A stretch of DNA of 52,974 nucleotides from a virus (Duplodnaviria > Caudoviricetes), in IMG/VR virus record IMGVR_UViG_3300032073_000043, positions 1 through 52,974 of that record; one strand, 5' to 3'. Positions 4,103-47,972 of this stretch are shown one piece after another. The first letter of the stretch is position 1. Every line of letters begins with the position of its first letter. The notes under the pieces are model-generated. The model saw only the letters and a program-made list of their open reading frames with translations. It searched no databases and was not told the origin of the DNA. The position numbers and the translations under genes were made by a program.

Positions 4103-7100
4103 TTATTTTCTGTATTTAGTTTTTCGTTTACTAGATGATTTTTTATTTTTAGCTTTAGCTTTTTCAACAGCGGTGTTTTTAACACCAACATCCCAAGTGT
4201 TCCAACCTAAAAACGTAGCAACTCTTTGCCAAGCTTGATTTTGTGAATCAGCAGCAGCTCTTAAGTTGTTTAATTTCATTATAGCTCTATCTAAAGGTAC
4301 GTTTGTAGTAGCAGATACTATATTGGCTATAGCTAAATAAGCTGGGTTATCAATACCCATACCCATTTGAGGTATAATCTTTTTATTAAACTTATATGTT
4401 TGTGTAGCTGAGTAAATTTTTCTAATCTTACTACCAATCGGAGGAGACAAGTTGACAGCTTCAATCATTGTATAAGCGTGGTCTGCTCTATAACCTTTAT
4501 CATTTTGAGCATTAAATTGAAGTATCATGTTTTTTATAGTAGATATACCAGCGCCGTATACACCACCACCTCTTAGTAAACTATCAAGAGAAGTGTTTAA
4601 CGCTCTTAGCTTTTTGTTCTCTAGTTTTTGTGTTAGCTCTTCATCTTCTTCATCATCAAAAGCTAATGCAAATAAACCAGATTGTAAAGTGGAAAATATT
4701 ATATTTTGTAATACACCATAATATAGTATTTTGGATATATTAGTCTTTACATCTCCACGACCATTTTTAATGTCTAGAACAGCTTTTTTAATTAACCTAG
4801 CATACTGCATTGGTGTGTTTTGAAACGCAAGTACTAGTCTACCAAGCGGTCCAGCTTGTTGTTGTGATATTAAAGCAGGATCAGCAGATTGTTGTGATTC
4901 TTCAGATGTTTTAGCAAAATCAGCAAAAGCTTTATCTTTAGCTTGTGCTTCAGTCATACCTTGACTCTTATATGTATTAAATCTATTTCTATAAAAACTA
5001 GCACCACCCATTGATATTGCGAAGCTATCCGCCATCTGTGTAGGTAAGAAACCTTTTTTCAATAAATAAGATATAGCTGCAGAAGCTTTATCTGTTTTAC
5101 CAGCGACAGCTTGAGCTATCTCAGCCTCGTTAACATCACTCTGTAATCCAGCTCTTCTTTGTTTTAGCATGTCTGAATTAAATATCATACTAAAATCAGA
5201 CCAAAACTGTGGTTGATTAGCAAAAGCCATACCAGCTTTTAATGGATTATTATCAGACCAATTTATAAAGTTTATCATAGATATTGTCTGAAGTATAGCT
5301 GATCTACTGTTAAAGAACATTATAGCACCAACAGAATTATTAACCCAATTCATCCAACTATTAACTAGTTTGTTTTTACCGGTGGTTCTGTTCGTACCAT
5401 TTTCCATTCTCCATAATATATCTTCTAAAGCACTTCTATAATCTTCACCATATATAGCTTCAATTTTATTCATGTTCTTTTCAGAAAATATTTCATTTTT
5501 TCTTTCTATCCAATTAGCTAAATACTTTTTTCTATTTGTTTTTTGAGCTATACTAAAGTAATCATAAGCTATGGTACCACTAACCCAGTCTTGACCAGGT
5601 TTTATATAACCTTCTTCTAGTTTAGTTGTAGCGCCAACAAGATCAGCAAAACCTCTCATGTTGTGATTGTTTCTTACTATATCAGATAACTTCTCTATAT
5701 CAACTTTAGACATACCTGGTATTTCAAAACCAGCTTTATTCCATAAATAAACTCTTATGGCTTGTTCGTTTGAATATTGTTTATAGCCTACATCTTTTAA
5801 TAATGATCTGAAAGCTTTTGGAAATCTTTTCTTTAAAGCATAAAAGTCATTACCTAAAGCTTGCTTAGCCGCGTTTAATGATCTTACACCTGCCCAGTAT
5901 GGATCTATTAAAGCTTGTGTAAAGAATTTAAAAGATTTTTCTCCAGCTTTACCTTCAGGTAGCATATTGTACATTAGACCTACAAAGTCTTCAGCTGAAG
6001 GTGGCATCCAGAATTTATACTTACCTTTACCTAATCCAGCTGCTTTACCAGCTGCTCTACTATATTCTTCATTTTTATTAATACCAGATTTTCTTTCTAA
6101 TATAGTGTTAAAGTTTTCATCTAGTGTTTTACTAAATTTAACTTGAGCTAGCTTAACATCATTTTTAACATTAGCAGCTTCTAAAACTTCTTTTACAGCT
6201 TGTACGTTTTTTATTGCATCATCAGCAAATAATATGTTATTGTAACCACTGTTTATTTTATTTACAACCCAGTTGGCTTTAGCGGATGCTTTACCATCTT
6301 CTAAACCAGTTATATTTTCTATAGGTATATTTAATCCCATACCTTTTAAAAACGCATGTATTGCGTAAGCGGCTTCTTGTGGTCTTGCTGTTAGTACATA
6401 TATATCTTTATTACCAAACTTACTGTTTATTTGTTGAGCTAAGTCAAAGAAAGGTCCTTTCTTACCATCAATAACTTTATTAAACTCACTAAAATCAAAT
6501 GCAGCTCCAGCAGCTTCTAAGTCAGCAGATTCAACAGCAAACTCAGTGGCAGTGATTTTTCTCTTTTTACCGTTAGGCATCGTAACACCCACCTTACTAT
6601 TTGACTGAGCTAACGTGTCATCAAAATCAAATATGCTCATACCTTTTTCAACCTTAGAGAATTTAGCTATAACATTATCTTTAGCCATCATTAAAGCTCT
6701 CTCTTGTGGTGTAGCTATTTTAGAAGCTTGAGCATCTGTTAAAACCCAACCTTGACCAAGAACCTCTGGCTTTTTAGGATTTAATGATTTTATAGCAAAA
6801 ATATTTTTATAACCCCAAGTTGCTGGATTATAATATCTCTTATCTATAGGATCTTTAACTATATCAGCTATAGTACCTTGTCTGAACTGTATGTTTATAT
6901 TATCGTCCATAACCTTAGGTATAATAGCTACTTTGTATTTTGCTTTTAACTGATCTGGTGTAAGCTTACTTTTACCATCGTAAAACAATACTAATCTAGT
7001 TAATGCAAATTGAGTTGCCAGCATGTGTTCGTATGTTCTAGGACCCTTGTGTTTTCCCTCAAAGAAAAACTCTACAGGCGCAGCGGACTTAAATAATCCT

Positions 7101-10100
7101 TGCATATCTTGTTTCATAGTTGTCGCTAGCATTGCTTTAACTACTGGATCTATTTTTTTTGATTTAACTATATACTTAATGTAAGAATTTGCTTCATTCC
7201 AAGCTGGATCAGTGTATTCAAATTGTTTTTTGTAATTATCTTGAAACCTTTGTTTTGCTGTTTTTCTTTTACCATCAAGCGTAGATGTAGATGGAGCTGT
7301 TAAGGTTTGTATTTCTTTACCATCAAAAAAGTATTTAGTAACTACAGAATTAACTTCACCATCTTTTTTATATGAAATATTTTCAGCGTAAGTTATACCG
7401 TATTTTTCTAAAGGCTTAACAACAGTTTCGTTAAAATCTTGAGATCCATAAAAGAACTGATAGTATCTAGCCGCTCTTTGTTTATTTACACCAGCTGATG
7501 TATTATGTTTTCTATGTAAACCAAGGATTTTTATAGCTGCTTTAACTTCTGCTTCGCTCATATCAGGCTTAAACTTACTGTGTAAGTAGTCAACTGTTGC
7601 TGTTCTACCTTTAGTAACTGTTGCTGAACCTGGATCATAATAGGTTTGCATCTTACCGGTTTCACCTGTAAACAGCTTTAGCAAGCTATTCGAAAATTCT
7701 GCGTCAGTAATTTTTAACTGCTTATCAGCCTTTAAAAATTCATCTACATTTATGTTTACACCTTTGTCTTCTCCAATAACTTTTTCTATAAATCTTTTTA
7801 TAGGGTTATATATATCGTTTGTTAATCTCTGTATTTCTGCTTTTGTTTCGTCAGGTAACAAAGATGCGATAGTATTTTTTACATTAGCTTTAGTTACGTC
7901 AAGATTATCTTTATTTAACTTCTCAACAATTTTAGTACCATCAACCTTACTAAACTTTAAATCTGGGTCTCTACCTATTTGTTTACCTATAATAGATCTT
8001 AGTGCTTGATTTTTAAAGTTACCTTTATTAACTAGTACTTGCTCAGCTTTACTCATTATTTCTGGTTCAGCTAAAACTTCCATAGTAGCATCGTGAGCAA
8101 ACTCTATAGCTAGTACTTGAGCTAAACTTTCTTTTCTACCACGTTTTAAAAAATATTGTATTAATTCTTCTTTAGTTTTTGGTACTTTTTCAAATTTAGC
8201 ATTACCAGCTGTTTTGCTTTTAACTTTTTTATCTAATGATGATTGTTTTGAGCCTTGTCTATCAATAACTTTAACAACGAGATCTTTGTATCTATTGTTT
8301 ATTAAGTTTTGATCCATCATTTCAAAAGCTTCTTCTATAAATTGATCTAAAAAGTTAGTATAATCTACAGTACTTCTACCCATAACTTCATACATAGTTT
8401 CTTGTAAGTCTAAACCTAATGCTCTACTTATTTCTTTTTGCCATCTTAAATCTGTTATATCTACAGCTTCAGTTATTTTATCACCTTTCTTGTATTGACC
8501 AGTAGCTATATCTTTTTTCAATGCTGATCTTGTAACCATCATTTTTCTAAGAATATTTGTTTTAATAGCTTTTTTAATTCTATTGTGAACTTTACCATCT
8601 CTTTCAAAGCCCATCTTTCTTCTTAATGTTTCTTTGACTTTTACAGGAGCTTGTTTAGCTTTTCTTTCTTCTGCTAGTTTTAAATCTAGTATTTCATCAG
8701 GAGTTAACTCTGTGGTGTCTTCTATTTGAGTAGCAAAAGAATCACCCTCAGCGTTTTTCTTAGCTTGATCGATACTTTTAGTCTGTTTATCTTTTTTAGC
8801 TTCTATAGCTAAAGCTTTGTTAGCTTCTCTTTTAGCGTATACTATGTTACTACCAAACCATTTATATAAACTAGGTGTTTTAGATGGATCATAGTTAACT
8901 AATCTATTTGCTAATTCTTCTCTTGCTAAATCTTTTTGTTGCTTATTTAGACCAGATCCAAATAGCTTATCAAAGTCACCATCTATTATAGCTTCATACA
9001 CTTGTCCAAACCCACCGTTAGCACTTTGAAACTCAGCTTTTGTTTTAGCACCTTTAGTTAAAGCATCTACTATAGGACCAGGATCAGCATCTTGATCTAA
9101 GTTTACTTTACTAAATTTTCTCTTACCTGTCGTTGCTAGTTTTTCACTAGTGAACTTTTTAAATCTTTTATCTGCTTTTTTATTAGCGAAAGCTTTGTTG
9201 TGAGCTATCATAAAGTTTGTAACGTCATCTGCTGTTTCAAAGTTAAGCTCTGCTTTAGGTATACCTAATGCTTCTGATATAAGATCTTTAACATTGTCTA
9301 TAAAAGATTCTATTCTACCTTTGCCTTGTATTTTTCTAGCTATACTTTTATCCTTTGACATTAGATCTGCTAGCTGAGCCAAGTACTCATCTGAGTTTAC
9401 ACCAGTAACTTCTTCATTAGTGTATTTACGTTTTTTAAACTGGTCTAAAACTTGAGCGTGAATATCAGCGTTATTCTTAGACATGTTTTGTTTAAACTTT
9501 TCTATAGCTTTTTGTGCTACAGCGCTAGTTGCTTTGTTATTTAATCTAGCGTTTAAAGCTTGATGAATAAACTCGTGAGCAGCAACGTTTAACATACCAT
9601 TATTTAATGATACGTCTTTGTTTAATACAGCTTTACCATCTTCAGTTATAAAACCAGCACCATTAGATGCTTCATCTCCATATTTATTTTTAATTTCTTC
9701 TTGTGATAAAATTTCTGTTTTACCACCCATGCCTTCAGCTATGTCAGCACCTAACACTTGTTTAACTTGAGCTTGCTCTGTGGCTTTTTTATTTTCTTCT
9801 AATTGTTTGTTTCTTTCAAAATAACTATTAGTTATGTCTTTTATCTCAGCTTTCTTGTTGCTTATCTGATTTTTTTGAGATTGTGTTACTGAGCCTTTTG
9901 ATTCTAAACCTTGTAATTCTTTTTCTAATTCAAAAAGTTTTGTTCTATCACCTTCATCAGTAACTCTAGTATCTAGGTTATTTTTTATAACACCATCTTT
10001 TCTTCTAGCTTCTAAGCCTTCTAATATGGAACTGTTGTTTTTAACATCAAAAGTTATTTGAGCTAATTGTTCGTCTGTCATAGCACCTGTTAGATTCATG

Positions 10101-11296
10101 AAATCTGCTTGGCTATGTTCTTTACCGTTTAAAGTATATTGAGAAGTACCTATATCATTAAATGCTTGGCTTAATGCTATTGGTCCACCAACAACACCTT
10201 CACCTAAAAATTCACCAGCAAGTTCAACACCATCTATACTGCTTATGGCTTCATCTAATGTTTTACCAGCTATAACATCTTTAGCAACAGAACCAGTAGC
10301 TTCAGCAACAGCACCAAGTGTACCTTCAGTGCCAATAGCAGCTCCAAATCCAGCGCCGATACCTAACACTTTACTACCAGTTGCTTTTTGCACAGCCGTA
10401 TTTGCTTTACCAAATCTATTAACACTTAGTTTAACACCTAGCTTATCAACAGCTGCTGTAGTAGCACCTTTACCAAGAGCGGCTAATCTTAGTTGTTGAA
10501 ATCTATCTTTGTCCTCCATTAAAGCTTTTAAATCTTCGCCGCTATAACCTTGGCCCAACTCTTCAACTAGTAGTTCATCTAAAGCGTAAGCAGAATCAAC
10601 TTGACCTTGAGCAAGTGCATACATACTTCCAGCAAAACTACCAATTTTACCACTTAATGTTCTTTGTTTTCTCATAGCATTTGCCCCAGCAACAACAGCA
10701 CTCATTGTTAAAGCTCTTTTGTCACCAGAAAATAAAGATATAGGGTTTTGAATTAAAGACTCATACGTTGTTAACAAAGCTTGTTTTGGATTATTACCAA
10801 AAGCTTGAAAAGCCATAGCTGTGTCTTCAAACATATTTGGCTCTTCTCCGTTTTCTAATCTAAATTTTCTTCTTTTATCTTCTATATCTTTTTGAAAATC
10901 TTTAGTATAATCGGCTATAGGTCTATATTTATCGTTTTGAGCAATTATCTCATTTATTTCATTTTGATTATACTCACCATCTATGTCAATTAAAGCATCG
11001 TTCATAGATTTTATCTTATCAGCTTTTGAAAAAGGATTATAAAGATCCCAGAAGCTTGGCTCCTTTTCCATCTCTATAATTTTTTCCCTATTAGAAGGTT
11101 CTTCAGGTTGATTAATATAGTTCGATATGTAGTTTGCTTGTTCTTCGCTCGGACCTGAGCCTGTGTATTTTTGATAAAACGCATTAATAAACTCTCCTGG
11201 ATCTTGTTCAGAAGCATATTGAAGTTTAGAATTCAACTCTTCTTGACTTAGACCTGGACTATACTTAGCATATAGTTGTCTATAAAGTTCTTCCAT
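4103..11296 (-). CDS. Giant (2397 aa) virion ejection/polyvalent protein with zincin, sigma-like and HAD phosphatase domains
   Basis: Lies after the tail and pilot genes. Gly/Ala hydrophobic segment; HEFIH...DEYLA zincin motif; HAD motifs IFDFDDTL, VLTARP and LFADD; four KFSK motifs. Confidence 0.75.
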   Translation of the reverse strand: MEELYRQLYAKYSPGLSQEELNSKLQYASEQDPGEFINAFYQKYTGSGPSEEQANYISNYINQPEEPSNREKIIEMEKEPSFWDLYNPFSKADKIKSMNDALIDIDGEYNQNEINEIIAQNDKYRPIADYTKDFQKDIEDKRRKFRLENGEEPNMFEDTAMAFQAFGNNPKQALLTTYESLIQNPISLFSGDKRALTMSAVVAGANAMRKQRTLSGKIGSFAGSMYALAQGQVDSAYALDELLVEELGQGYSGEDLKALMEDKDRFQQLRLAALGKGATTAAVDKLGVKLSVNRFGKANTAVQKATGSKVLGIGAGFGAAIGTEGTLGAVAEATGSVAKDVIAGKTLDEAISSIDGVELAGEFLGEGVVGGPIALSQAFNDIGTSQYTLNGKEHSQADFMNLTGAMTDEQLAQITFDVKNNSSILEGLEARRKDGVIKNNLDTRVTDEGDRTKLFELEKELQGLESKGSVTQSQKNQISNKKAEIKDITNSYFERNKQLEENKKATEQAQVKQVLGADIAEGMGGKTEILSQEEIKNKYGDEASNGAGFITEDGKAVLNKDVSLNNGMLNVAAHEFIHQALNARLNNKATSAVAQKAIEKFKQNMSKNNADIHAQVLDQFKKRKYTNEEVTGVNSDEYLAQLADLMSKDKSIARKIQGKGRIESFIDNVKDLISEALGIPKAELNFETADDVTNFMIAHNKAFANKKADKRFKKFTSEKLATTGKRKFSKVNLDQDADPGPIVDALTKGAKTKAEFQSANGGFGQVYEAIIDGDFDKLFGSGLNKQQKDLAREELANRLVNYDPSKTPSLYKWFGSNIVYAKREANKALAIEAKKDKQTKSIDQAKKNAEGDSFATQIEDTTELTPDEILDLKLAEERKAKQAPVKVKETLRRKMGFERDGKVHNRIKKAIKTNILRKMMVTRSALKKDIATGQYKKGDKITEAVDITDLRWQKEISRALGLDLQETMYEVMGRSTVDYTNFLDQFIEEAFEMMDQNLINNRYKDLVVKVIDRQGSKQSSLDKKVKSKTAGNAKFEKVPKTKEELIQYFLKRGRKESLAQVLAIEFAHDATMEVLAEPEIMSKAEQVLVNKGNFKNQALRSIIGKQIGRDPDLKFSKVDGTKIVEKLNKDNLDVTKANVKNTIASLLPDETKAEIQRLTNDIYNPIKRFIEKVIGEDKGVNINVDEFLKADKQLKITDAEFSNSLLKLFTGETGKMQTYYDPGSATVTKGRTATVDYLHSKFKPDMSEAEVKAAIKILGLHRKHNTSAGVNKQRAARYYQFFYGSQDFNETVVKPLEKYGITYAENISYKKDGEVNSVVTKYFFDGKEIQTLTAPSTSTLDGKRKTAKQRFQDNYKKQFEYTDPAWNEANSYIKYIVKSKKIDPVVKAMLATTMKQDMQGLFKSAAPVEFFFEGKHKGPRTYEHMLATQFALTRLVLFYDGKSKLTPDQLKAKYKVAIIPKVMDDNINIQFRQGTIADIVKDPIDKRYYNPATWGYKNIFAIKSLNPKKPEVLGQGWVLTDAQASKIATPQERALMMAKDNVIAKFSKVEKGMSIFDFDDTLAQSNSKVGVTMPNGKKRKITATEFAVESADLEAAGAAFDFSEFNKVIDGKKGPFFDLAQQINSKFGNKDIYVLTARPQEAAYAIHAFLKGMGLNIPIENITGLEDGKASAKANWVVNKINSGYNNILFADDAIKNVQAVKEVLEAANVKNDVKLAQVKFSKTLDENFNTILERKSGINKNEEYSRAAGKAAGLGKGKYKFWMPPSAEDFVGLMYNMLPEGKAGEKSFKFFTQALIDPYWAGVRSLNAAKQALGNDFYALKKRFPKAFRSLLKDVGYKQYSNEQAIRVYLWNKAGFEIPGMSKVDIEKLSDIVRNNHNMRGFADLVGATTKLEEGYIKPGQDWVSGTIAYDYFSIAQKTNRKKYLANWIERKNEIFSEKNMNKIEAIYGEDYRSALEDILWRMENGTNRTTGKNKLVNSWMNWVNNSVGAIMFFNSRSAILQTISMINFINWSDNNPLKAGMAFANQPQFWSDFSMIFNSDMLKQRRAGLQSDVNEAEIAQAVAGKTDKASAAISYLLKKGFLPTQMADSFAISMGGASFYRNRFNTYKSQGMTEAQAKDKAFADFAKTSEESQQSADPALISQQQAGPLGRLVLAFQNTPMQYARLIKKAVLDIKNGRGDVKTNISKILYYGVLQNIIFSTLQSGLFALAFDDEEDEELTQKLENKKLRALNTSLDSLLRGGGVYGAGISTIKNMILQFNAQNDKGYRADHAYTMIEAVNLSPPIGSKIRKIYSATQTYKFNKKIIPQMGMGIDNPAYLAIANIVSATTNVPLDRAIMKLNNLRAAADSQNQAWQRVATFLGWNTWDVGVKNTAVEKAKAKNKKSSSKRKTKYRK

Positions 11297-13537: not shown

Positions 13538-16500
13538 TTAAGGTTCTTGAGCAAGTGATACTGCTATATTGAAAGTCATATCAGACGCAGAGTCGATCAC
13601 TTCGTCTAGTTGAGCTGTCCAACTATAATGTAAATCTTGTGACGGCGCAACACCTACTAAACTTGTTTTAGTTATTGTTAATCCACTTACTTGATGGAAC
13701 GCTGATGCTTGTGTAGCCGATATTGATAACGATATATCATTGTATCCGTTATTATAGAAGTTACCGTACATAACACCAGTACCACTAGTTAAGTTAGTTC
13801 CACTTGCTGTTCCGATTAATACGTTTTTAGCTGCTGTTCCACTATTTCCGTTACCATCGTTATACGTTGCTCTGTGTGCTCCTAGTATTAATCCACCACC
13901 TGCTCCAGTAACTGTAGGTGTATATAACCTTGAACCACCACCACCAGATCCACCAGTTATAGAGGCAAAGTTATTAATAGCTAGGTTAGATGTTAAGTCG
14001 TCACTACCGTATTTATTAACACGCATGTCACTAGTTATACTTATTGTTTTAGGTGATGCAGTGTTATTTATAGCTATTATAGGTGTTTGATAGTCTAACT
14101 CAAAACCATTTGAAAACAAGTCTATATCATCAGAATTTGTAGATAAGTAGTTAGACCAGTCTTCTATTTCTGGATCTCTTAATTTTGTAATATTTCCAGT
14201 AGCTGTTGCTGTTAAGCTTAAGCTAAAACTAGCAACGTCAGAGTCTTCGTCTGTGTGCAAATTAGCTATATATGTTTTTGTAATATTACTAGATGTTACA
14301 GTGAAATCAGCAGTTGCTGCCATACCTAGCGTTAAATCTACATTCGCAAGTTGATTTATGTAAAATGGGTTTTGAACAACATTAGAAGAGCTGTATACAT
14401 TTCCTTGTAAAACAGGATCTCCAGTGCTTGATGGTGTTATAGGTAGCAAAGTTGTTGGACTTATAGCTTCAATAAGTATATAATATCTTTTAGAAACAGT
14501 AGTTTCAAAGAAAGGTATTGATACTAAAGAAAACCCAGTTGAAGGTATTTCTAAATCAGTCTCAGATCCAACAAACGTTGTTCCATTCCACCATTCAGAA
14601 AATGTTATAGTAGTACTACTAATTGTTTGTGCTGTGTTTAGTGTTATAGACGTGCCATTTACACCGGCCACAGTTACAGTACCACTTATACCAGTACCAG
14701 TAACCAACATACCTACTTTAATGTCGTTGTTTACAGCTGTTAAAGTTAAAGTTGTGCTAGATCCCGATGTACTAGCTGTTGATGTTGTAAAGTTTTTAAC
14801 TCTAAAGTCAGCACCTATAGCTCCAAATATTTTTAATTCTTTTGTTTGAGCAAATCTACCCACGGTGTTACCACCAACTAAATCATATCCACTTATTTTG
14901 TTTACATCAGCAGCATTTTCCAATACAGACTTACTGTGGAATATTATTTCGTTTTTATTTGTATCTTGTGCAGGGAATTTATAAGCTACAGTATACACTC
15001 TTTTGTCTACATCAGCTAAAACTTTACCACCAACACCAATAGTTATATTATTGTTACTAACATCCTTATCTTGATGTGTTATAACATAATAGCTTTCAGG
15101 ATCGTTATCCTCTACGGTTATTTTAAAACTAGGTTGTTCGTTAAAGTTATAACCGGTAGCTAAATCTATAGTTACAGTAGCAACTGTATTTTGTGTAGTG
15201 TAGTTAGCTTGATAACCTAGTTGATTACCACTTGGATTAGCTGTTTCGTTATTTCCTGAACCAGCATAACTAACTGTTTGTGTTATGTTACCGTCACTTT
15301 GATCTATTATAACTAAGTTTTCTAGCTTGTACTTATTTAAAGCGCCATCACCTGTTACAGCTAAATTAATAGCTAAGTTACTAGATGGCATGTTAACACC
15401 ATCTGTAAAGCTTACTTTTGCTTTAACATTAAGACCATCTTGAACAAATACTACACTGCTAACATAAGTACCTGTAGAACTTACACTTAAGTCACTAGCG
15501 GTTAATGTAGAACCAGTATCAGGAGTTATAGTTATAAACACATGTGTGTTAGTACTATGTATTTCAGTACCAACCTCAACGTCAAATGTAGAACCTGGAT
15601 TAGTTGTGTTAGCTATACCAGTTAAGCTTACTGTAACTGTTTTATCACTAAGAGCTAGATCACCAGATATAGCTGTTAATTGACCTATACCTTGTACGTT
15701 AAATTCTTTTGAATCTAAATTCTCTAACGTTGTAGCTTCACCTTTAATGTGATTATAGAACCTACCTTCTTTTTTCTTGAACTCTTTTATAAAACCTTGT
15801 TGAGTGTCCGTGTGTATATGATCACAGTACCAACCCTTAGTGTTAGTAGAGGTAGCATTGTCATAATTATTTGTATAAACTCTTGATAAGGATCCACCAT
15901 AGTTTAATGTTTTAAAACCTTTAATAGTTTCTGGCATTTCATTTATTAAAAGAGTAACAGATGATTCATACTGTACTCCATAGAAATTATTTCTAATATC
16001 ATTTTCATGTACAAATAATTCTCCTGTTTTAAAAGAATAGTACTTGTTGTTTAAAGACAAAGCACCCTCAGGTACAAAAGATTTAAAACTAGGGAAACCT
16101 TTTACTTTTTCATCAAAAGAAACCGTTTGACCATCTAAAGTTAAATTGTATAAACCTTTACTGCCATCGTAACTACCTAGTATTAATGTTGAACCTGGTA
16201 AAGTATCTTTAAAGAAATCTTCCATACCAGCATCTGATATAGCCGTTAAACCATCTCTTGATAATCTAATAACAGCGCCTCTTGATTTATCTGTAAAATA
16301 ACACCTATAAGCATATGAAGCAAAAGACTCTGGGTTTTTTGATATACCGTATTCACCTATAAAAGGTACTGCTTGCCCTAAAACTTTATTAGTAGCTGTT
16401 AATTGTGGGTTGCCGTTTGCTTCAAATATTGCGTCTTTATTAGCTAAAACTTTTAAACACTTATCTTCGCAAAGTACTATTAAGTCTGTATTTCTAGCGT

Positions 16501-19500
16501 GTAACTTTTGTATACCACCATAATGTGGGTTTAAATCTTTGGTTATAGCTTCACCTTGTATAAATTGATTAAGCCTATTAATACCACTAGTTGAATTAAA
16601 TATACCTGAGTATATTAAACCATTCTTTCTTCTTTCTTCTTCGTAAGGTTCATCTAAAACAGCTGAAACCTTAACACCTTTACCCATTCTAGGCGCGTTA
16701 AAGTCATCATTTATTCTATCAGACTCAACGCCGTTACCAAACGAATAACAATTTTTAAAGTCTAAAACATGTGTTGAACCATGTTGTGATATTGGTCTAG
16801 ACAAACCAGTTTCGTAATAAATATCTAACTCAGCTGATTCCTTAGGTTCTGTTTCCCAAATTGCTGGATTACTTGATGTTAAAACTTCTACATCAGCACT
16901 AACAACATTTTGCATTATTTGTATTTCACTAATATAATTAGTTGGATTACCGCTAGTTGGATATGTAAAAGGATCAGTATAACCATCAGTACTGTCTTTC
17001 TTTTTAAACTCTAAGTTGTATTGTCTTCTTTTTGCTGATTGATACCTTTTTCCAGATGTTCTTCTATATTTATACTTTCTATCTTCTTGCGCGTTTTTAG
17101 TTATTTCATATATTGGACTTAACGCATCCGATTGACTACCTTTAAATCTAAAAAGAGTACCTTGTAGTTCTATTAATTTTAAAAAGTTATTTATAGTGTT
17201 TGATTTATCAAATGATGTTGATCTACTTTTTGGTGATCCGCAAAAATAAAACGTCATTTTCTTTTGACCAAGCTTTGGATGGCCATTGTTGTCTTGTGTA
17301 ACCCATCTACTTCGTCTTCTGTCTGCTGTATCAAACCAAGAAGCCTCTTGTCTAGAGGAGCCAGCACCCGTGTTTTGTGCGTTACCAAAAATAGTTCTAG
17401 TTTCTATTATACCAAATTGCTCATCTTCTTCTGGAAAAGAAGCTATAATATTAGTATCAAAATTACTATCTCTATTTATTTTTACAAAAAATCTACCGTA
17501 AAACTCAGCTTTTCTTTCAAATTTTTCTTCAAATAATATAATTTCAAAGCTATCACCAGCGGATATACCAGAAACCATAGTATCACCAGTTTTAATAGGT
17601 TCTTCTAAAGTTACTTTATATATATGTTCTTTAGACTCATTTGATCCTGTATCGTCTGTATCACCAGTTGGACCACCACTAACAACCTTGTATTTATCTG
17701 ATTTAACACCACCATTAGCAATTTGTATAACAGCGTCTGATGAAAAACCTTCACCAAAGCTAGGATTAGTTTGAGGATTTGGACCTCTAAACTCAAACGA
17801 CACACTACCTATTTGAGGTATACCTGAAGTTCTAGCTTCTACATCACCAGTTGCTATGGCTCTTTCTTTTAACTTTAAAAAATCAGGTGCATCGTTAGAT
17901 ATATCTAGTATTTTATATCTAGACTTTGTTGCAACAAAATCATCAGAGTCATGTTTTTTCTTTAATATTAAATAAGTTTCTTCATCTACTTTGTTTCTTT
18001 CAGATGAAGGAAAGCTTAACCAAACATTACCATCTTCAGCTAGATAATATCTATCCATAGCTAAATTGTAATATTCATTAGAAGTTTCTTTTATGTAGTA
18101 TTTAAAATGCGTAGCCCAGTCTGGTGGTTGATTACTTAAACTAACGTTTATGCTATTTACTGTTTTAGCATAATCTTTACTTGTTTGCTTAGAAGCATTT
18201 GCACTAGTAAAAACAGGTGATTGTCTGTTGTATTTATCTAAATAAACAACACCAACTTGATAAGTTCTAAGTGATTTTATTGATAACTGAGGTTCTTTAA
18301 CCGTTGTAATAGCAGCTTGTGAAATGCTCATGCTGATATTCGGTAAGTTAAAATCAGGTATATCGTAGTTTTGTAAGTAGTTAGCGTATATAAGTCTATT
18401 TGCTGTAACCTCTTGAGCGGTAGCTTTTCTTGGAACGTTATCCCAAGGGCGAAGTGTTTGATTAGACTCTACAACTTTACTTATTATTTCTGACTCTAAC
18501 TTATACTCTGTTGGAAAAGTGCCATCAGAAGCGTACTTAAGCGTGTCTACGACATATACATTACTATTGTTTGTCTCTTTATATAGTATATCAACCTCTT
18601 CTACGTCAATAGGTCTTGATTCTGTTATGTTTATTGATAATTGTCTTAAGTTGTTTATCATACCATCGTTATAACCGTTGGTAGATAAATATTCAAAAGT
18701 GTCAGGTAAGAAAGCTAATTCGCTAAAAGGTGAAAACGTAGAATATTCACCAGAGTAATATTTCCATCTATAAGCAAAGCTTACAAATTTCTTTTCAAAA
18801 AGTACACCCTCTTCACTTAGTATAGCTTCCCATGTTAATGGTATATAAGGTATTTCAACTGGTATACTTTGTATTGTACAATTAAAAACGTTAGATGCAC
18901 TTATACTATTTATTAATAGTTTTATTTCAAGATTTTCTTGTTGTCCTAATTCTTCATATATAGACGTACAAGTTATTATATCACCTGCTTGCCAATTTGG
19001 TAGTGGTGAAAAAGTTAAGTTTAAAACAGTCCCAGCATCTTTAGCAACACCTTCTGTATCTGTGAAAGTTGTATTAACAGCATTACTTATAACAACTGTA
19101 GATGTGCCTGTACCAATACCACCTCTTGTAGAAGAGCTCATTACTAATGTTGGTTTACCCATCGGCGCTTTTTTAGCTACTGTTATATGTTCTTCTGTAA
19201 AACTAGAAGAAGAAGCTAGATCTGAAGAAGCTATTATTTGACCAGTGTATTTAGTGTGTGTTGTAAAATTAGAACTACAACCAGATTTAAAAACACTTAT
19301 ATCTATTTTTTTAGGTTCTTTTTCACCATCCGTCCACATTAACATACCATCTAGAACGTTTATACCTGTTATATATGTACTTGCTTTAAAATCAAGTATG
19401 TTATTTGTATCTACCAACACCGGTGATATTACACCGCTAGCATCATCATACTCGGCTATGCAATCGGCTTCGTCAGCTTTTATAAACCAGTATATTCTAT

Positions 19501-19777
19501 CGTGCTCGTTATTTAGTTTAGTACCAACACAAATAGCGTTAGTTAAACCAAAGCTATCTGTATTCCAATTATCAGTTATAACTTTTTTATTCGAGTCATA
19601 CGCTTTACCTAATATTTGCGTTGTACCTTTAATGTTTTGAACACTACCAACATTGCTACCTTCAGATGTAGAAATCTCAATGTTAAGAGCGTCTCTATAC
19701 TCTCCATTAGGTACTAATCTTTCGTCCAGGTCTTTATTCATTTTACCTAAACGGAAGTGATGTTTAATATCTGGCAT
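13538..19777 (-). CDS. Tail stabilisation/nozzle protein (crAss-like 'muzzle' type) with long C-terminal extension
   Basis: N-terminus GKMNKDLDERLVPNGEYRDALNI and internal NCYSFGNGVESDRI and EYGISKNPESFA match the family pattern I recall. Follows the ring proteins. Confidence 0.75.
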   Translation of the reverse strand: MPDIKHHFRLGKMNKDLDERLVPNGEYRDALNIEISTSEGSNVGSVQNIKGTTQILGKAYDSNKKVITDNWNTDSFGLTNAICVGTKLNNEHDRIYWFIKADEADCIAEYDDASGVISPVLVDTNNILDFKASTYITGINVLDGMLMWTDGEKEPKKIDISVFKSGCSSNFTTHTKYTGQIIASSDLASSSSFTEEHITVAKKAPMGKPTLVMSSSTRGGIGTGTSTVVISNAVNTTFTDTEGVAKDAGTVLNLTFSPLPNWQAGDIITCTSIYEELGQQENLEIKLLINSISASNVFNCTIQSIPVEIPYIPLTWEAILSEEGVLFEKKFVSFAYRWKYYSGEYSTFSPFSELAFLPDTFEYLSTNGYNDGMINNLRQLSINITESRPIDVEEVDILYKETNNSNVYVVDTLKYASDGTFPTEYKLESEIISKVVESNQTLRPWDNVPRKATAQEVTANRLIYANYLQNYDIPDFNLPNISMSISQAAITTVKEPQLSIKSLRTYQVGVVYLDKYNRQSPVFTSANASKQTSKDYAKTVNSINVSLSNQPPDWATHFKYYIKETSNEYYNLAMDRYYLAEDGNVWLSFPSSERNKVDEETYLILKKKHDSDDFVATKSRYKILDISNDAPDFLKLKERAIATGDVEARTSGIPQIGSVSFEFRGPNPQTNPSFGEGFSSDAVIQIANGGVKSDKYKVVSGGPTGDTDDTGSNESKEHIYKVTLEEPIKTGDTMVSGISAGDSFEIILFEEKFERKAEFYGRFFVKINRDSNFDTNIIASFPEEDEQFGIIETRTIFGNAQNTGAGSSRQEASWFDTADRRRSRWVTQDNNGHPKLGQKKMTFYFCGSPKSRSTSFDKSNTINNFLKLIELQGTLFRFKGSQSDALSPIYEITKNAQEDRKYKYRRTSGKRYQSAKRRQYNLEFKKKDSTDGYTDPFTYPTSGNPTNYISEIQIMQNVVSADVEVLTSSNPAIWETEPKESAELDIYYETGLSRPISQHGSTHVLDFKNCYSFGNGVESDRINDDFNAPRMGKGVKVSAVLDEPYEEERRKNGLIYSGIFNSTSGINRLNQFIQGEAITKDLNPHYGGIQKLHARNTDLIVLCEDKCLKVLANKDAIFEANGNPQLTATNKVLGQAVPFIGEYGISKNPESFASYAYRCYFTDKSRGAVIRLSRDGLTAISDAGMEDFFKDTLPGSTLILGSYDGSKGLYNLTLDGQTVSFDEKVKGFPSFKSFVPEGALSLNNKYYSFKTGELFVHENDIRNNFYGVQYESSVTLLINEMPETIKGFKTLNYGGSLSRVYTNNYDNATSTNTKGWYCDHIHTDTQQGFIKEFKKKEGRFYNHIKGEATTLENLDSKEFNVQGIGQLTAISGDLALSDKTVTVSLTGIANTTNPGSTFDVEVGTEIHSTNTHVFITITPDTGSTLTASDLSVSSTGTYVSSVVFVQDGLNVKAKVSFTDGVNMPSSNLAINLAVTGDGALNKYKLENLVIIDQSDGNITQTVSYAGSGNNETANPSGNQLGYQANYTTQNTVATVTIDLATGYNFNEQPSFKITVEDNDPESYYVITHQDKDVSNNNITIGVGGKVLADVDKRVYTVAYKFPAQDTNKNEIIFHSKSVLENAADVNKISGYDLVGGNTVGRFAQTKELKIFGAIGADFRVKNFTTSTASTSGSSTTLTLTAVNNDIKVGMLVTGTGISGTVTVAGVNGTSITLNTAQTISSTTITFSEWWNGTTFVGSETDLEIPSTGFSLVSIPFFETTVSKRYYILIEAISPTTLLPITPSSTGDPVLQGNVYSSSNVVQNPFYINQLANVDLTLGMAATADFTVTSSNITKTYIANLHTDEDSDVASFSLSLTATATGNITKLRDPEIEDWSNYLSTNSDDIDLFSNGFELDYQTPIIAINNTASPKTISITSDMRVNKYGSDDLTSNLAINNFASITGGSGGGGSRLYTPTVTGAGGGLILGAHRATYNDGNGNSGTAAKNVLIGTASGTNLTSGTGVMYGNFYNNGYNDISLSISATQASAFHQVSGLTITKTSLVGVAPSQDLHYSWTAQLDEVIDSASDMTFNIAVSLAQEP

Positions 19778-29879: not shown

Positions 29880-30154
29880 TATTTAGATCTTCTTTCTGCA
29901 AAACCACCAAAAGTAGACTTTTCCTCTTCCTTTTTAGGTTTATTATCTAACATGTCTTGCTCATCTTGTATTCTATTTAATATCTCAAAAGCATCAAATA
30001 TAGCTAGCTTTTTAGTTGCAGCCGCGTTTTTTAATCTATCAGCTGATATATCGTCGTCTGTTTCTACTATAGGCTCTTTTGCAACCTTTATTAATTCATC
30101 AACAGCTCTATGTCCAGCTTGGATTATATTCTTTTTCGTTTCCTTGATATTCAT
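29879..30154 (-). CDS. Probable terminase small subunit
   Basis: Small helical ORF (likely start MNIKETKK at 30154) translationally coupled to terL. Confidence 0.55.
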   Translation of the reverse strand: MNIKETKKNIIQAGHRAVDELIKVAKEPIVETDDDISADRLKNAAATKKLAIFDAFEILNRIQDEQDMLDNKPKKEEEKSTFGGFAERRSK

Positions 30155-30692
30155 ATTTGATTGTAATAAATTTAGATAAAACCCTATATAATCTCTCACC
30201 GTTAATTACAAACTCGTATTCACTATTAGGTGTGAAACCTATTAAATCTCCTTCGTTTATATTTAAATGCTTGTTAGTATATTTAACAACGCCTATCAAT
30301 GGTTTTTCTTTATCGTCATATATATTGTCTGACTGTAAAGGTTTTACAAAGCAATAATCAGTTTGACTTGACCATTTACCTTTTTGTTTGTATAAAAATA
30401 TTTGATCTGTATTAACAAAATATTTATCTTCTTTAAAATAAGATCTGCTGTTTTTTTCTACACCTTGTTGATCGTGCCATCTTCTAAAAACATTGTGGTG
30501 TATAATAACAGTGTCACCTACTTTTATATCTGTTTTAACAATTTTAGGCAAAGAAACAACTATAGCTTCTCTGTTAACGTACTGATGACTAAATATCTCG
30601 GCGTTTAATATGAGCTCTTTATCACCTATTTTTTTTACGTTATTGTATCTTGATCCTTTTGGTTTAACTACAAAGTTAAATAATCCTTGCAT
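30108..30692 (-). CDS. GroES-fold-like protein (apparently two tandem units)
   Basis: Two similar units, FVVKP...IKVGDTVII and CFVKP...INEGDLIGF, resemble co-chaperonin beta-barrels. Confidence 0.55.
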   Translation of the reverse strand: MQGLFNFVVKPKGSRYNNVKKIGDKELILNAEIFSHQYVNREAIVVSLPKIVKTDIKVGDTVIIHHNVFRRWHDQQGVEKNSRSYFKEDKYFVNTDQIFLYKQKGKWSSQTDYCFVKPLQSDNIYDDKEKPLIGVVKYTNKHLNINEGDLIGFTPNSEYEFVINGERLYRVLSKFITIKYEYQGNEKEYNPSWT

Positions 30693-32160: not shown

Positions 32161-34302
32161 CTACTCGTTATTATCTTGAAACGGATTAGTACCTAATTGC
32201 CCAAATTGATTAAAGTTAACATAGTTACCAGTGTTAGTTGTATACGTAGTCGTATACGTAGTTGTTGTATTAAAACCAGTGCTTGTAGCTGTAGACGTAT
32301 TAAAAACTGTTGACGTTGATGTGTTATAAACAGTAACGTGATTTGTATTAGTTGTAGTACTTGTGTTAAAAGTAGTAGTCGTGTTAAACGTAGTTACTGT
32401 AGCTGTAGTAGTGTTGTAAACAGTACTTGTCGATCTAGTTGTTGCTGTATTTGTACTAGTGTTATAAACTGTTGTTGTCGCTCTAGTTGTTGCTGTGTTT
32501 GTAGACGTGTTAAAAGCTGTTATAGTTATTGTTTGCGTTGTTGTAGATGTATTGTAAACAGTTGTATAAACAGTAGTCGTATCTCTTGCTGTACTTTTTA
32601 GAACTGTGTTTCTAGATGTACTAACAGTTGTGTTTCTAGATGTAGTAGTGCTAGTATTATAAGTTGTTGTATAAGTAGTGTTTGTACTAAATACAGTTGA
32701 TGTACTAGTATTAAACACAGTACTAGTTGCTCTACTTGTAGATACAACCGTTGTTGTACTAGTATTATAATGAGTTATTGTTATAGTACTAGTTGATCTA
32801 GTTGTATTTCTATACGTAGCGGCTTGAACATCAGTTAACCTCATTGTTTGTTGAGACGTAGTGTATACTGTATTAGTACTAGTATTAAACGTAGTTGTTG
32901 TGGATTTACTGGTATTAAAAGTTGTAGTCGTACTGTACGTAGTTAAAGTAGACGTATTATAAACTGTAGTAGTTGCTCTAGACGTTGATATTGTAGTTGC
33001 TCTACTAGTTAATGTAGCAGTACTAGTATTAAAAGTAGTACTTGTTGTGTATACCGTAGTTGTAGATCTAGATTCTATTGTAGCTCTACTAGTTGCAAAT
33101 GTAGTTACAGTTGATCTAGTGGTAGACACAGTAGTGGTTCTTTGTTCTGTTGTTACCGTGCTAGTATTAAAAGTGGTTGTAGTAGAGTATGCTGTTGTTG
33201 TAGCTCTTTGCTCTGTTGTTGATCTACTTGTAGCAAAAGTAGTCGTTGTCGAGAATACTGTAGTTGTGCTAGTGTTAAACACAGTTATAGTAGCTGTACT
33301 AGTGTTAAAAGCTGTGTTAGTAGTATATGTCGTAGTGGTAGACCTTGAGGTTGCTGTACTTCTAGTTGTAGTAAATGTTGTTGTAGTTGACTTACTAGTT
33401 ATAGTACTTGTGTTAAATGTTGTGCTAGTAGTGTATACTGTTACTGTACTTCTTTGCTCAATTGTAGCTCTTGATGTAGCAAAGGTAGTTGTAGTTGACT
33501 TAGTAGTTACAGTTGATGTATTGAAAGCCGTATTAGTAGTATATACCGTGGTTGTACTTCTAGATTCAATTGTAACTCTATCCGTAGCGAAAGTAGTAGT
33601 TGTAGCTCTAGACGTTAGCGTCGAAGTATTAAAAGCAGTTGTAGTCGTAAACGTCGTAGTAGTAGACCTACTTTCTATAGTGTTTCTGCTAGTAGCAAAA
33701 GTAGTAGTTGTAGCTCTAGTAGTATTAAATGTTGTTGTTGTTGTATACAGTGTAGTAGTACTAAACGCGGTAATTGTATTACGGCTAGTTGCTATTACTG
33801 TTGCTCTACTCGTTGATGTAGTTCTACTAGTAGCAAAAGTTGTTGTAGTAGCTCTAGATGTGGCAAACGTAGTTGTAGTAGACCTAGTAGTGTTAAATGT
33901 AGTTGTTGTATTAAATACAGTCGTGGTACTAGTATTAAATAATGTAGTTGTACTTTTACTAGTATTAAACGTAGTTAAAGTTGTGTAGGTAGTGGTAGTA
34001 GACCTACTTTCAGTTGTAGCTCTAGACGTATTAAAAGTAGTAGTCGTAGTATACGTAGTCGTAGTAGATCTACTTTCAGTCGTAGCTCTAGACGTATTAA
34101 ACGTCGTAGCTGTAGTGTATGTAGTAGTAGTATTTCTAGACTCAAGTGTGCTTCTACTTGTAGAAAAATAAGAAATATAAGTAGTGTTAAAAGACGTTGT
34201 AGTGTTTCTACTTTCAGCGGTGCTTCTTGACGTACCTCTACTCGTGTTTCTTATAGTAGATTGTGATGTGCTTCTTGATGTGCTTCTTGTAGTATTAGGC
34301 AT
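32161..34302 (-). CDS. Thr-rich repeat fibre protein A (713 aa)
   Basis: Almost entirely T/S/N with F/Y and R/K spaced 4/6/8/10 residues apart. No Pro in the repeat region. Confidence 0.85.
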   Translation of the reverse strand: MPNTTRSTSRSTSQSTIRNTSRGTSRSTAESRNTTTSFNTTYISYFSTSRSTLESRNTTTTYTTATTFNTSRATTESRSTTTTYTTTTTFNTSRATTESRSTTTTYTTLTTFNTSKSTTTLFNTSTTTVFNTTTTFNTTRSTTTTFATSRATTTTFATSRTTSTSRATVIATSRNTITAFSTTTLYTTTTTFNTTRATTTTFATSRNTIESRSTTTTFTTTTAFNTSTLTSRATTTTFATDRVTIESRSTTTVYTTNTAFNTSTVTTKSTTTTFATSRATIEQRSTVTVYTTSTTFNTSTITSKSTTTTFTTTRSTATSRSTTTTYTTNTAFNTSTATITVFNTSTTTVFSTTTTFATSRSTTEQRATTTAYSTTTTFNTSTVTTEQRTTTVSTTRSTVTTFATSRATIESRSTTTVYTTSTTFNTSTATLTSRATTISTSRATTTVYNTSTLTTYSTTTTFNTSKSTTTTFNTSTNTVYTTSQQTMRLTDVQAATYRNTTRSTSTITITHYNTSTTTVVSTSRATSTVFNTSTSTVFSTNTTYTTTYNTSTTTSRNTTVSTSRNTVLKSTARDTTTVYTTVYNTSTTTQTITITAFNTSTNTATTRATTTVYNTSTNTATTRSTSTVYNTTTATVTTFNTTTTFNTSTTTNTNHVTVYNTSTSTVFNTSTATSTGFNTTTTYTTTYTTNTGNYVNFNQFGQLGTNPFQDNNE

Positions 34303-34304: not shown

Positions 34305-34868
34305 TTAAGTTATTATATCGCCAGATATTTGTATTAGTAATTTACCATCTGTCTTTAAGTTATTAATATAATTATTTCTTAACGCTGTCTTATGATCGTC
34401 AGATACATCGTTTGGTTCTGCAAAAATATCTACCAATATTAAATCATATAGCTTTGTTGTTGAGTAAGTCCACTCGTCATGTGTTATTACATTTATATCA
34501 CTATGCATCCAGTTTACAATAGAAACTATCTCAGAGTCTTGTTCAACAACGTCCACACTTGTTGGTGATTTAGTATTTTTTACATATTCAGGAAAAGAAC
34601 CTAAACCAAGTCCTAATATTAAAACATCACCCCAAACTGCATTATCAAAAATACTGTTATCAAAACCACAACTATTACAATCACCTGCTTTTATTTTAGC
34701 AGTATACAAAGAGTTATAATATCTATGGTAAACATCAGATTTATATTTTAAATGTGACATCACAAATTGTGTTGTACCATCTTCTACAGAGGTTTTAGTT
34801 TCTTTTATTATTTCAAATTTAGTACCATCGTGGGTACTTATTAGGTTTTCGTTTATATATGCACTCAT
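34305..34868 (-). CDS. Class I SAM-dependent methyltransferase fold (spermidine-synthase-like)
   Basis: Motifs VLILGLGLG, VDVVEQD, YDLILVDIF and LKTDGKLL. Confidence 0.8.
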   Translation of the reverse strand: MSAYINENLISTHDGTKFEIIKETKTSVEDGTTQFVMSHLKYKSDVYHRYYNSLYTAKIKAGDCNSCGFDNSIFDNAVWGDVLILGLGLGSFPEYVKNTKSPTSVDVVEQDSEIVSIVNWMHSDINVITHDEWTYSTTKLYDLILVDIFAEPNDVSDDHKTALRNNYINNLKTDGKLLIQISGDIIT

Positions 34869-42670: not shown

Positions 42671-42674
42671 AATA

Positions 42675-42995
42675 TTATTTTGTTTGTTCTTTAGCTGCAA
42701 TTGAAACTTCAAGTGCATTTATTTGTTCTTGGATTTTAGCTTTTTTAGCTTCGTCTGTTTCATTTAATAAACTATCTTTTAAAGCTTTTAAAGCAACAGC
42801 GTCTGTGTCTTCACCTTCGTTTTGGTCTTGACCAGGCGGATTATAATTATTTGATTTTTGAGATTTTGGCTTTAGCTCTGCAGCAGAGTCTGCTATAGGC
42901 ACACCTCTACCAATGCTAGCAGCTCCATCAATTAATGCAGCTGATGCTCTATAAGGTGAATTAGCTTTTTGCCTTTGAAACCATGTCTTGTACAT
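42675..42995 (-). CDS. Hypothetical protein
   Basis: 106-aa ORF tiling the late operon. Confidence 0.55.
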   Translation of the reverse strand: MYKTWFQRQKANSPYRASAALIDGAASIGRGVPIADSAAELKPKSQKSNNYNPPGQDQNEGEDTDAVALKALKDSLLNETDEAKKAKIQEQINALEVSIAAKEQTK

Positions 42996-45068: not shown

Positions 45069-45322
45069 TCTACTAAAACTACATCTTGTATTTTTATAAC
45101 TTGCAATAGTTTATTTTTCCAGTGTATACCGTGTCCAGCGTGTTTATCATAGTATATAATGCTATTGTCATTAATACCCTCGACTAAGTTACCTTTTGTT
45201 ACAACTTTTGCTTTTATATACCTATTGTCACTGTCTGTTTTTTCTGTTAAAATTAAACCAGCAACTTTCTTAGGCTTTTCTTTGATCTTTTCTACTACTA
45301 TGTAATAATTAACTGCTTGCAT
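45065..45322 (-). CDS. groES: Co-chaperonin GroES
   Basis: YIVVE..., AGLILT mobile loop, AKVVTKG and IKIQDVV. Overlaps the groEL stop. Confidence 0.85.
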   Translation of the reverse strand: MQAVNYYIVVEKIKEKPKKVAGLILTEKTDSDNRYIKAKVVTKGNLVEGINDNSIIYYDKHAGHGIHWKNKLLQVIKIQDVVLVE

Positions 45323-47935: not shown

Positions 47936-47972
47936 TTATGTAACTAATTAATAATAAATAAATATAATAACT

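Follow-up and report, generated by a model that had tools for sequence, protein, structure and literature searches.

Phages without an RNA polymerase of their own are thought to rely on the host holoenzyme for their first transcripts, and the known exceptions, namely the N4, crAss-like and phiKZ-like phages, carry a whole polymerase in the particle. The viral contig IMGVR_UViG_3300032073_000043 of IMG/VR (52,974 bases, 33.5% G+C, estimated to be 86% complete), which stems from an uncultured, marine-type phage and is referred to here, over its full length, as the window, raises the question of whether a sigma factor-like segment may enter the cell as part of a giant virion protein. A preliminary description of the window had singled out two peptides encoded between positions 8685 and 9106, judged by eye to resemble regions 2.2-2.4 and region 3.2 of sigma70, and had proposed that a divergent sigma factor, packaged in the virion, redirects the host RNA polymerase to a phage-specific early motif, as an alternative to the virion RNA polymerase of crAss-like phages. 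Many stop codons interrupt this interval on the plus strand, whereas its minus strand encodes residues 731 to 871 of a giant protein, designated P0001. Both peptides are present there, about 15 residues apart, and the figure of ~383 amino acids (aa) given for the distance between the first two copies of the tetrapeptide KFSK is correct, these copies starting at aa 727 and 1114. The segment that they delimit (aa 730-1116) consists of an N-part, an acidic linker and a C-part, encoded as follows:

4103-11296, minus strand: giant open reading frame (ORF) P0001, 2397 aa, modular (ORF list and translation)
9107-9118, minus strand: KFSK motif 1, aa 727-730, upstream edge of the sigma-like segment
8762-9109, minus strand: sigma domain 2-like module (N-part), aa ~730-845 (AlphaFold2, VIA-align, BFVD, co-fold and conservation)
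8681-8770, minus strand: acidic linker, aa 843-872, predicted to be disordered (model confidence, charge and conservation)
7949-8680, minus strand: C-part of the segment, aa 873-1116, predicted alpha/beta domain (AlphaFold2 confidence mostly >85)
7946-7957, minus strand: KFSK motif 2, aa 1114-1117, downstream edge of the segment

As judged from the predicted models described below, the N-part is a real, highly diverged sigma2-like docking module, and it is plausible that the segment serves as an injected sigma factor.

Predicted fold of the N-part

AlphaFold2 modelled the whole segment (387 aa, 45-row alignment) with a mean predicted local distance difference test score (pLDDT) of 84.7. In the model of aa 730-869 (53 rows), the pLDDT was 88 to 95 over residues 11-100 and below 50 over residues 111-134. 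In the model, the N-part begins with short helices, which are followed by a helix resembling region 2.2 (aa 785-799), the NYDP loop and then a long, basic helix resembling regions 2.3/2.4 (aa 810-843), whose residues 810-842 have a net charge of +5 and in which W813, N817 and K827 are found in 38, 39 and 39 of the 56 aligned rows, respectively. Its "hydrophobic-x-x-R-L-x-N-Y-D-P" turn and aromatic-rich long helix face the "A-V-x-K-F-D-P ... F-S-T-Y-A-x-W-W-I" of sigma factors.

The models were compared by VIA-align with a library of 48,161 representative PDB chains, the rows of which give entry titles, not chain names. For the whole-segment model, 19 of the top 20 rows were sigma-factor entries (Z 4.8-6.0), with all matches lying on model residues 1-130; these entries comprised sigma2 domains solved in isolation, complexes of a sigma with an anti-sigma, and holoenzymes, the matched chain of the last group being as long as a sigma. 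The list for the N-part model had, judging by titles, sigma entries in at least 17 of its first 19 rows and chains of transcription complexes in the two others; a plainly unrelated protein, AcrR (Z 4.8), first appeared at rank 20. The matches were colinear over whole sigma2 domains (73-101 residues, root-mean-square deviation 3.2-5.7 Å), as for Escherichia coli sigmaE region 2 (94 of 106 residues aligned, 3.9 Å), the sigma2 of Mycobacterium tuberculosis SigC (86 of 89 residues, 3.4 Å), and chain F of the T4 gp55-dependent complex, which we take to be gp55 itself (101 of 137 residues, 3.9 Å). The helical topology predicted for the N-part is colinear with that of sigma-70 domain 2 (PF04542), especially of the extracytoplasmic function (ECF) type (sigmaE 2mao, SigC 2o7g, CnrH 4cxf, AlgU 8z6g), while the T4 gp55-type late sigma factors (PDB 7d7c/7d7d) provided the best or near-best structural match (Z 5.6-6.0; Foldseek TM 0.41).

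A second library led to the same kind of protein. In a Foldseek search of BFVD, 4 of the first 10 rows bore the name of a phage sigma or late-sigma factor (E 0.22-0.44, prob 0.35-0.80); the gp55-type rows, from Klebsiella phage KPV15 and Campylobacter phage CP20, reached prob 0.80. A language-model look-up in the ESM atlas, taken as a lead only, placed the N-part next to viral proteins of ~130 aa (0.96), and one cluster, at 0.95, had PF04542 (Sigma70_r2) on 50% of its members. We call the sigma2 fold because the structural lists are nearly pure in sigma factors, and not because of any single score. On these predicted models, residues ~730-845 very probably adopt this fold, with the helices of regions 1.2, 2.1, 2.2 and 2.3-2.4 in order. 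The likeness to regions 2.2-2.4 that had been noticed by eye is therefore borne out at the level of predicted structure, whereas at the level of sequence it does not rise above chance, as set out further below.

Predicted docking on the beta' clamp helices

The co-fold with the beta' clamp helices that had been suggested earlier was run with N-part residues 1-120, supplied with their own family alignment, and residues 1-420 of RPOC_FLAJ1, the beta' subunit of Flavobacterium johnsoniae. It passed its controls, with a score of 0.66 (0.70, 0.66 and 0.63 in the three runs) versus 0.00 for the best of 3 controls, and the model placed the N-part on the clamp helices. Of 157 solved complexes, 116 attain the mark used for such predictions, as do 2 of 215 mismatched pairs; these counts are rough here since we supplied an alignment of our own. 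The three runs agreed in at least 92% of their contacts, and the pLDDT of the partner was at least 80.

On the beta' side, the contacts comprised residues 141-143, 167-169, 299 and 308-319. The numbering was transferred by aligning the beta' of a Flavobacterium genome, reached via a 16S probe, with that of E. coli; residues 299-319 correspond to E. coli beta' 279-299, the two Flavobacterium sequences differing by 3 in their numbering and the map being good to a few residues. These contacts fall inside E. coli beta' ~260-309, which we take to be the clamp helices, the main site for sigma region 2.2. On the phage side, the contacts involved aa 757-760, 763-764, 767-768 and 771, all on one helix face, together with aa 793, 796-797 and 800 on the helix preceding NYDP. 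Many of them are conserved across the 56 rows (F763 in 46, Y/F at Y767 in 49, E/D at E793 in 35, A796 in 33, D/N at N797 in 34), and position 771 is aliphatic. Conserved, exposed hydrophobic residues on the predicted interface would be the trace expected of a real protein-protein contact. Based on the model, the N-part probably binds the beta' clamp helices, as sigma2 does, by its helices equivalent to regions 2.1/2.2.

The same fold and docking evidence would also suit a sigma2 mimic that sits on the clamp helices without initiating transcription, either as an injected competitor of the host sigma (shut-off) or as a tether of the polymerase at the entry site, the early motif then being read by the host holoenzyme or by another factor. 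We regard this as possible yet rather doubtful. It would agree with the absence of any sigma4-like part, with an early motif that is common to phages whose sigma2-like helices differ greatly (both described below), and with the description, in the accessible parts of PMC5512222 and PMC7824862, of injected polyvalent proteins as carriers of effectors against host functions. However, the closest phage look-alikes by fold are true gp55-type sigma factors, and a long aromatic and basic helix is kept at the place of regions 2.3-2.4, which a plain blocker does not need. A shut-off that has to leave phage transcription intact does not require an early gene product.

Sequence comparison with sigma factors

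Several results weigh against a sigma factor, among them those of sequence comparison. Pfam detected no sigma family in P0001, whether the whole protein (E ≤ 1) or six pieces of it (E ≤ 10) were searched, nor in nine of its relatives. PHROGs gave no family for P0001 at E ≤ 0.1, and membership of the gp55 family by sequence is thus not indicated; among PDB sequences, no sigma match was obtained by phmmer with the protein or by hmmsearch with the family profile. PF04542 had matches in 11 of 14 control genomes and none at E ≤ 10 in the six frames of the window. When the 56-sequence alignment of the N-part was compared by hhalign with the sigma2 regions of 6 E. coli sigma factors, P was 0.15. The profile was then enlarged to 36 sigma factors, by adding to these 6 a further 30, taken from two genomes of Flavobacterium. 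Matches to E. coli RpoE were unusable as a diverse profile, the 120 listed all being orthologues at least 86% identical. Against the 36-sigma profile, P was 0.014 over 68 columns, in the register of the preliminary description (L..RL.NYDP...L..W over f.kl...f....f.tWl). Scanned over the full length of the giant-protein family, the same profile matched best in the unrelated C-terminal domain, with an equal score (18.0 versus 18.6). Because all sequence tests were negative or at background, the similarity judged by eye is not established by sequence.

The structural comparisons have their own points on this side. No Foldseek match reached E ≤ 0.001, be it with the 387-aa model (PDB) or with the N-part model (PDB and BFVD); among the 50 PDB rows listed for the N-part, 8 were sigma entries, the best at E 1.4, with the T4 gp55 complex having the best TM of them (0.41). 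VIA Z values of 5-6 are not clear of unrelated helical rows, and values below 8 are common for helical models. The co-fold may have passed for a shape like that of a solved complex through the memory of the model and shows likeness, not binding; moreover, the F. johnsoniae beta' is a stand-in for that of the host. The N-part is the more divergent half of the segment and is poorly conserved in much of the family. As to the remainder of a sigma70, no sigma3 domain was detected, and no sigma4 row occurred among the VIA-align matches to residues 158-387 of the whole-segment model.

The negative sequence tests, the Z values of only 5-6 with no significant Foldseek E value, the possible shape memory behind the co-fold and the poor conservation of the domain would all be compatible with another reading, in which a cargo or ejection protein uses this helical domain for packing or as a scaffold, the sigma2-like topology is convergent or vestigial, and the domain has no role at the RNA polymerase. 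We nevertheless find this unlikely. The structural lists are almost purely sigma2 out of the 48,161 chains of the library, BFVD and the language-model search agree with sigma, and the exposed hydrophobic and acidic residues predicted to contact beta' are conserved across the family at 25-30% identity.

The acidic linker and the C-part

The second of the two peptides, which had been likened to region 3.2, did not hold up as such. It lies inside aa 843-872, a stretch with a net charge of -7 that directly follows the long sigma2-like helix and is predicted to be disordered (model residues 111-134, pLDDT <50); its core, EG[DE]...EDT, is conserved in two subfamilies. Because it comes directly after sigma2, with no intervening sigma3, this linker is not region 3.2 in the sigma70 sense. 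ECF sigma factors possess a linker between sigma2 and sigma4, and the acidic stretch is at most comparable to it.

The C-part ends in GRK..LAQ....FAHDATMEVL...RDPDLKFS, and no other part of the segment is as well conserved in the family. Its structural matches (model residues 158-387) were weak and unspecific, at Z ≤ 4.7, with EMSY and eIF2B-epsilon as the best, and the ESM atlas returned nothing for it. With no informative match to this part of the whole-segment model or in the atlas, a reading of the C-part as sigma3 or sigma4 was dropped as unsupported.

The early motif

The motif to which the sigma factor had been assigned, TACGA-N8-CGAT, is present in the window in a candidate early region:

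47914-52573, plus strand: six TACGA-N8-CGAT copies, at 47914, 48476, 49069, 49858, 51099 and 52557, candidate early promoters

These are 6 matches versus 0.11 expected, all on the plus strand, with the longer consensus ACAAAnnAAATACGA-N8-CGATwATA, and each copy is located upstream of a small plus-strand ORF. The Bacteroidota sigmaA promoter has the consensus TTG / TAnnTTTG, to which the motif is not alike. An ECF-like -35/-10 reading (AAC-N16-CGT) was set aside, as the six copies vary at the C of "AAC". The sole tRNA-Met (CAT) gene of the window (51017-51090, plus strand) ends 8 nt before the motif copy at 51099.

The 24-nt form of the motif was found in at least 149 stretches of IMG/VR contigs, often several per contig. 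Of five contigs with multiple copies that were tested, four have the sigma-like segment, the exception being a contig that is a 65%-complete fragment. Segment identity was 68% in one of these contigs and 29% in another (G005), and in two more (G004 and G006) the segment was recognised by profile search only, the N-part at E ~0.002 with filters off. The putative recognition helix of G004 and G006 is quite different, and the motif is the same. Since the motif is unchanged beside a strongly changed domain, the sigma2-like helix is unlikely to be its reader, and the sharing of one motif by contigs with N-parts as diverged as those of G005, G004 and G006 is a further point against a sigma role for this module. 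In the same contigs, the C-part is better conserved than the N-part and, if the segment reads DNA at all, is the better candidate; the host holoenzyme or a host alternative sigma may also be the user of the motif. We further observed that, at aa ~785-880 of the giant ORFs of G004 and G006 (L293 and L292, respectively), the N-part appears by eye closer to ECF sigma region 2 than the copy of the window, with a stretch reading D-L-R-D-D-V-I-E-R-I-Y-K ... K-W-D-G-R-G-D-L-Y-G-F-I-N-G-R-I.

These data bear on the complete model of the preliminary description, in which a full injected sigma would read TACGA-N8-CGAT through a region-2.4-like helix and a region-3.2-like linker. The motif itself is real, present 6 times where 0.11 is expected and each time before a small ORF; it is unlike the sigmaA consensus, and it occurs together with the segment in four of the five multi-copy contigs. 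That the segment reads it is doubtful, however: the motif is identical where the putative recognition helix is very different, its length of ~35 bp is beyond the reach of one sigma2 domain, the peptide meant to be region 3.2 is a disordered acidic linker right after sigma2 with no sigma3 before it, and the co-occurrence, seen among related phages, says little. Taken together, we consider the complete model improbable. Any choice of promoters would more likely be due to the better-conserved C-part, or to another factor, than to the sigma2-like helix by itself.

Architecture and family of the giant protein

The remaining features of P0001, listed in the order of translation, are the following:

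9563-9577, minus strand: HEFIH (HExxH), zincin-type motif, aa 574-578, in the N-terminal region (regular expression; VxHExxH kept in the family consensus)
6656-7945, minus strand: variable module, aa 1118-1547 (no family match; relatives carry DUF6934-like or other sequence there)
6653-6664 and 6128-6139, minus strand: KFSK motifs 3 and 4, flanking the HAD module
6131-6655, minus strand: HAD-type phosphatase module, aa 1548-1722, with a DFDDT motif (Pfam DUF2608, E 9.1e-6, above cut-off)
4106-6130, minus strand: C-terminal domain, aa 1723-2397, with the highest conservation in the family (family consensus)

A single giant late-gene polypeptide hence brings together several unrelated modules, namely the HExxH region, the sigma2-like segment, the variable module, the HAD module and the C-terminal domain. 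KFSK occurs at aa 727, 1114, 1545 and 1720, that is, 4 copies versus 0.079 expected, a number reached in none of 20,000 shuffles, and the four copies split P0001 into five pieces (aa 1-729, 730-1116, 1117-1547, 1548-1722 and 1723-2397). At the column of motif 2, KFS is present in 28 of the 45 rows of the family alignment, and x-[FY]-S in 36 of the 45. The KFSK peptides are candidate cleavage or linker sites, perhaps for the HExxH domain of P0001 itself. Neither the whole protein nor its pieces gave a significant Pfam peptidase family, or an MPTase or LPD family; a relative, P0012, showed a weak match to Peptidase_M78 (E 0.022).

In the HAD module, the DxDxT, LTAR and DD motifs are retained in the family consensus. 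A hidden virion polymerase, which might still reside in the variable module (aa 1118-1547), was set aside on sequence grounds, the lone DFD-type motif of P0001 being the HAD DxDxT and no polymerase family being matched in Pfam. In the relatives P0017 to P0019, a P-loop kinase (Zeta_toxin/AAA_33) adjoins the HAD module, an arrangement that recalls polynucleotide kinase-phosphatase; the pairing hints at an injected RNA-repair or counter-defence module. The C-terminal domain had no Pfam match above the cut-off, and a transmembrane helix in it was rejected, as no 19-residue window exceeded 1.6 on the Kyte-Doolittle scale.

A word-indexed search with aa 730-1116 yielded 26 homologues of 1360 to 3784 aa, and an exhaustive phmmer search over 1.84 billion representatives yielded 91 matches (representatives at 50% identity), nearly all inside proteins of 1000 to 3700 aa; those shorter than 500 aa look like fragments. 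The family hidden Markov model (domain E < 1e-5) recognised the C-part in 98 and the N-part in 55 of 113 proteins. Relatives swap the module that follows the segment, P0017-P0019 having the kinase and P0021 and P0023 a DUF6934-like piece. A locus search with the segment returned 2 close relatives only, and among the 438 pattern stretches matched in a scan of genome contigs with P0001, none was a relative.

Genomic position and probable delivery of P0001

On the same strand as P0001 lie the genes for the terminase, the portal, several virion structural proteins, a holin and an endolysin, with GroEL/GroES further on. P0001 belongs to this module of late structural genes and lies four genes downstream of one for a muzzle of the crassvirus type:

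13538-19777, minus strand: crassvirus-type muzzle-like tail protein, 2079 aa, upstream of P0001 (Pfam crAss_MUZ_C, E 9.1e-9; phrog_14478, virion structural protein, E 4e-147)

In Pfam, crAss_MUZ_C is the C-terminal domain of the crassvirus muzzle protein. Relatives of the muzzle-like protein were found in 87 phage records, all below 60% identity, from Flavobacterium, Cellulophaga, Tenacibaculum and Maribacter phages. The phage is otherwise akin to Pervagoviridae-like Cellulophaga/Flavobacterium podophages, so that a crassvirus-type muzzle seems to be present outside Crassvirales. The gene order is shared with gp097-gp101 of Cellulophaga phage phi38:1, which are annotated as structural proteins, and gp101, at the position of P0001, is a "structural protein" of 1691 aa. 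In PhicrAss001, the genes that follow the muzzle gene encode cargo proteins detected in virions by mass spectrometry and thought to be ejected, according to the accessible part of PMC10172136. Its location downstream of the muzzle gene, the synteny with phi38:1 and the cargo genes of PhicrAss001 put P0001 at a cargo-gene position.

Considering gene position, synteny and polyvalent architecture, P0001 is likely to be packed in the virion and ejected into the host, and it is probably a "polyvalent" cargo protein. Some observations speak against this part of the account. Homology between phi38:1 gp101 and P0001 was not detectable (BLASTP E 0.11), and the idea that the two are homologues was dropped on that ground; P0001 also had no tblastn match among 50,697 phage records.

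No RNA polymerase gene or separate sigma gene was recognised in the window by PHROGs and Pfam, with 14% of the genome missing and several large ORFs being without a family; the phi38:1 annotation has no RNA polymerase or sigma gene either. The absence of a recognised phage RNA polymerase fits the idea of an alternative to a virion polymerase, without showing it. Three ORFs on the minus strand (32161-34302, 34865-37480 and 40826-42718; 713, 871 and 630 aa) have no Pfam or PHROG family. Because a large module of P0001 and these large ORFs have no family, the replication functions of the phage, and any transcription functions, are without assignment. GroEL (45309-46880, minus strand; phrog_5725, E 3e-141) and a GroES-like protein (30108-30692, minus strand; phrog_13932) are both also present in phi38:1.

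Proposed mechanism and comparison with known systems

The sequence of events that we propose starts with a giant polyvalent cargo protein which, from its gene position and architecture, would be packed in the virion and ejected with the DNA. The conserved K-F-S boundaries would be the places where it is cleaved, possibly through the action of its HExxH domain, or would at least order its modules; the unit of ~387 aa so freed would comprise the sigma2-like domain, the acidic linker and the conserved alpha/beta domain. The sigma2-like domain is predicted in silico to dock on the host beta' clamp helices through its region-2.1/2.2-like helices. The host core polymerase would in this way be captured at time zero, as by a minimal sigma of the T4 gp55 type, and might make the first phage transcripts and perhaps also help to draw the genome into the cell. 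The whole chain, from cargo delivery to a gp55-like minimal sigma role, is tentative, and we believe in it somewhat less than in its failing at one step or another. More doubtful is its most detailed form, in which a self-processing cargo polyprotein of a wide family of uncultured Bacteroidota-type phages would release at the K-F-S sites an injected sigma of ~44 kDa, whose sigma2-like part grips the clamp helices, whose acidic linker stands in for the ECF-type linker, and whose C-part reads the upstream half of the early promoter. Our estimates for fold, binding and delivery concern separate steps and are not alternatives to each other; since the complete model of the preliminary description overlaps the account preferred here, the likelihoods of the whole readings do not sum to one.

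Compared with the sigma-70 family, the N-part has no significant sequence or profile match, and no sigma4 accompanying it was detected. Whereas sigma is a free subunit of 20-70 kDa, the N-part occupies aa 730-845 within the 2397 aa of P0001, and the acidic, predicted disordered linker and the alpha/beta domain come after it. Among phage factors, gp55 is a minimal sigma with only a sigma2-like part, and such a module alone can direct promoter-specific initiation. Expressed late and as a separate protein, it acts together with gp33 and the sliding clamp; in contrast, the module described here is part of a late-gene giant protein and would act at entry.

Like the polyvalent proteins, P0001 is giant and multi-modular, has its gene among late virion genes, and possesses an HExxH motif and swappable effector modules (PMC5512222, accessible part). 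For these proteins, Iyer, Burroughs, Anand, de Souza and Aravind (2017) proposed, in the same portion of that paper, that zincin-like MPTase domains release the modules. Unlike them, P0001 has no Pfam match to MPTase or LPD, and a regular boundary peptide of the K-F-S kind is not met with in the available passages of that description. As with the virion RNA polymerases of crAss-like phages (phi14:2 gp66; PhicrAss001 gp47/49/50) and of N4, the gene lies after muzzle or tail genes and a capacity for transcription would enter with the DNA (PMC10172136 and PMC5512222, accessible parts). Those phages bring a polymerase, whereas P0001, without a recognised polymerase domain, would bring a handle on that of the host. 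The word or Greek letter "sigma" does not occur in the text of PMC5512222, nor does "sigma factor" in PMC10172136, and a literature search, which covered sources other than subscription journals and supplements, found no paper on a sigma-like domain in a virion or polyvalent protein.

If this reading is true, a sigma-like docking module inside a cargo protein would be a cheaper solution than a packaged polymerase, and an injected sigma subunit would amount to a third way of starting an infection, besides the mimicry of host promoters and the injection of a polymerase. Given the 91 family representatives at 50% identity, the finding that the phage of the window may seize the transcription machine of the host on entry would then extend to many marine and freshwater phages.

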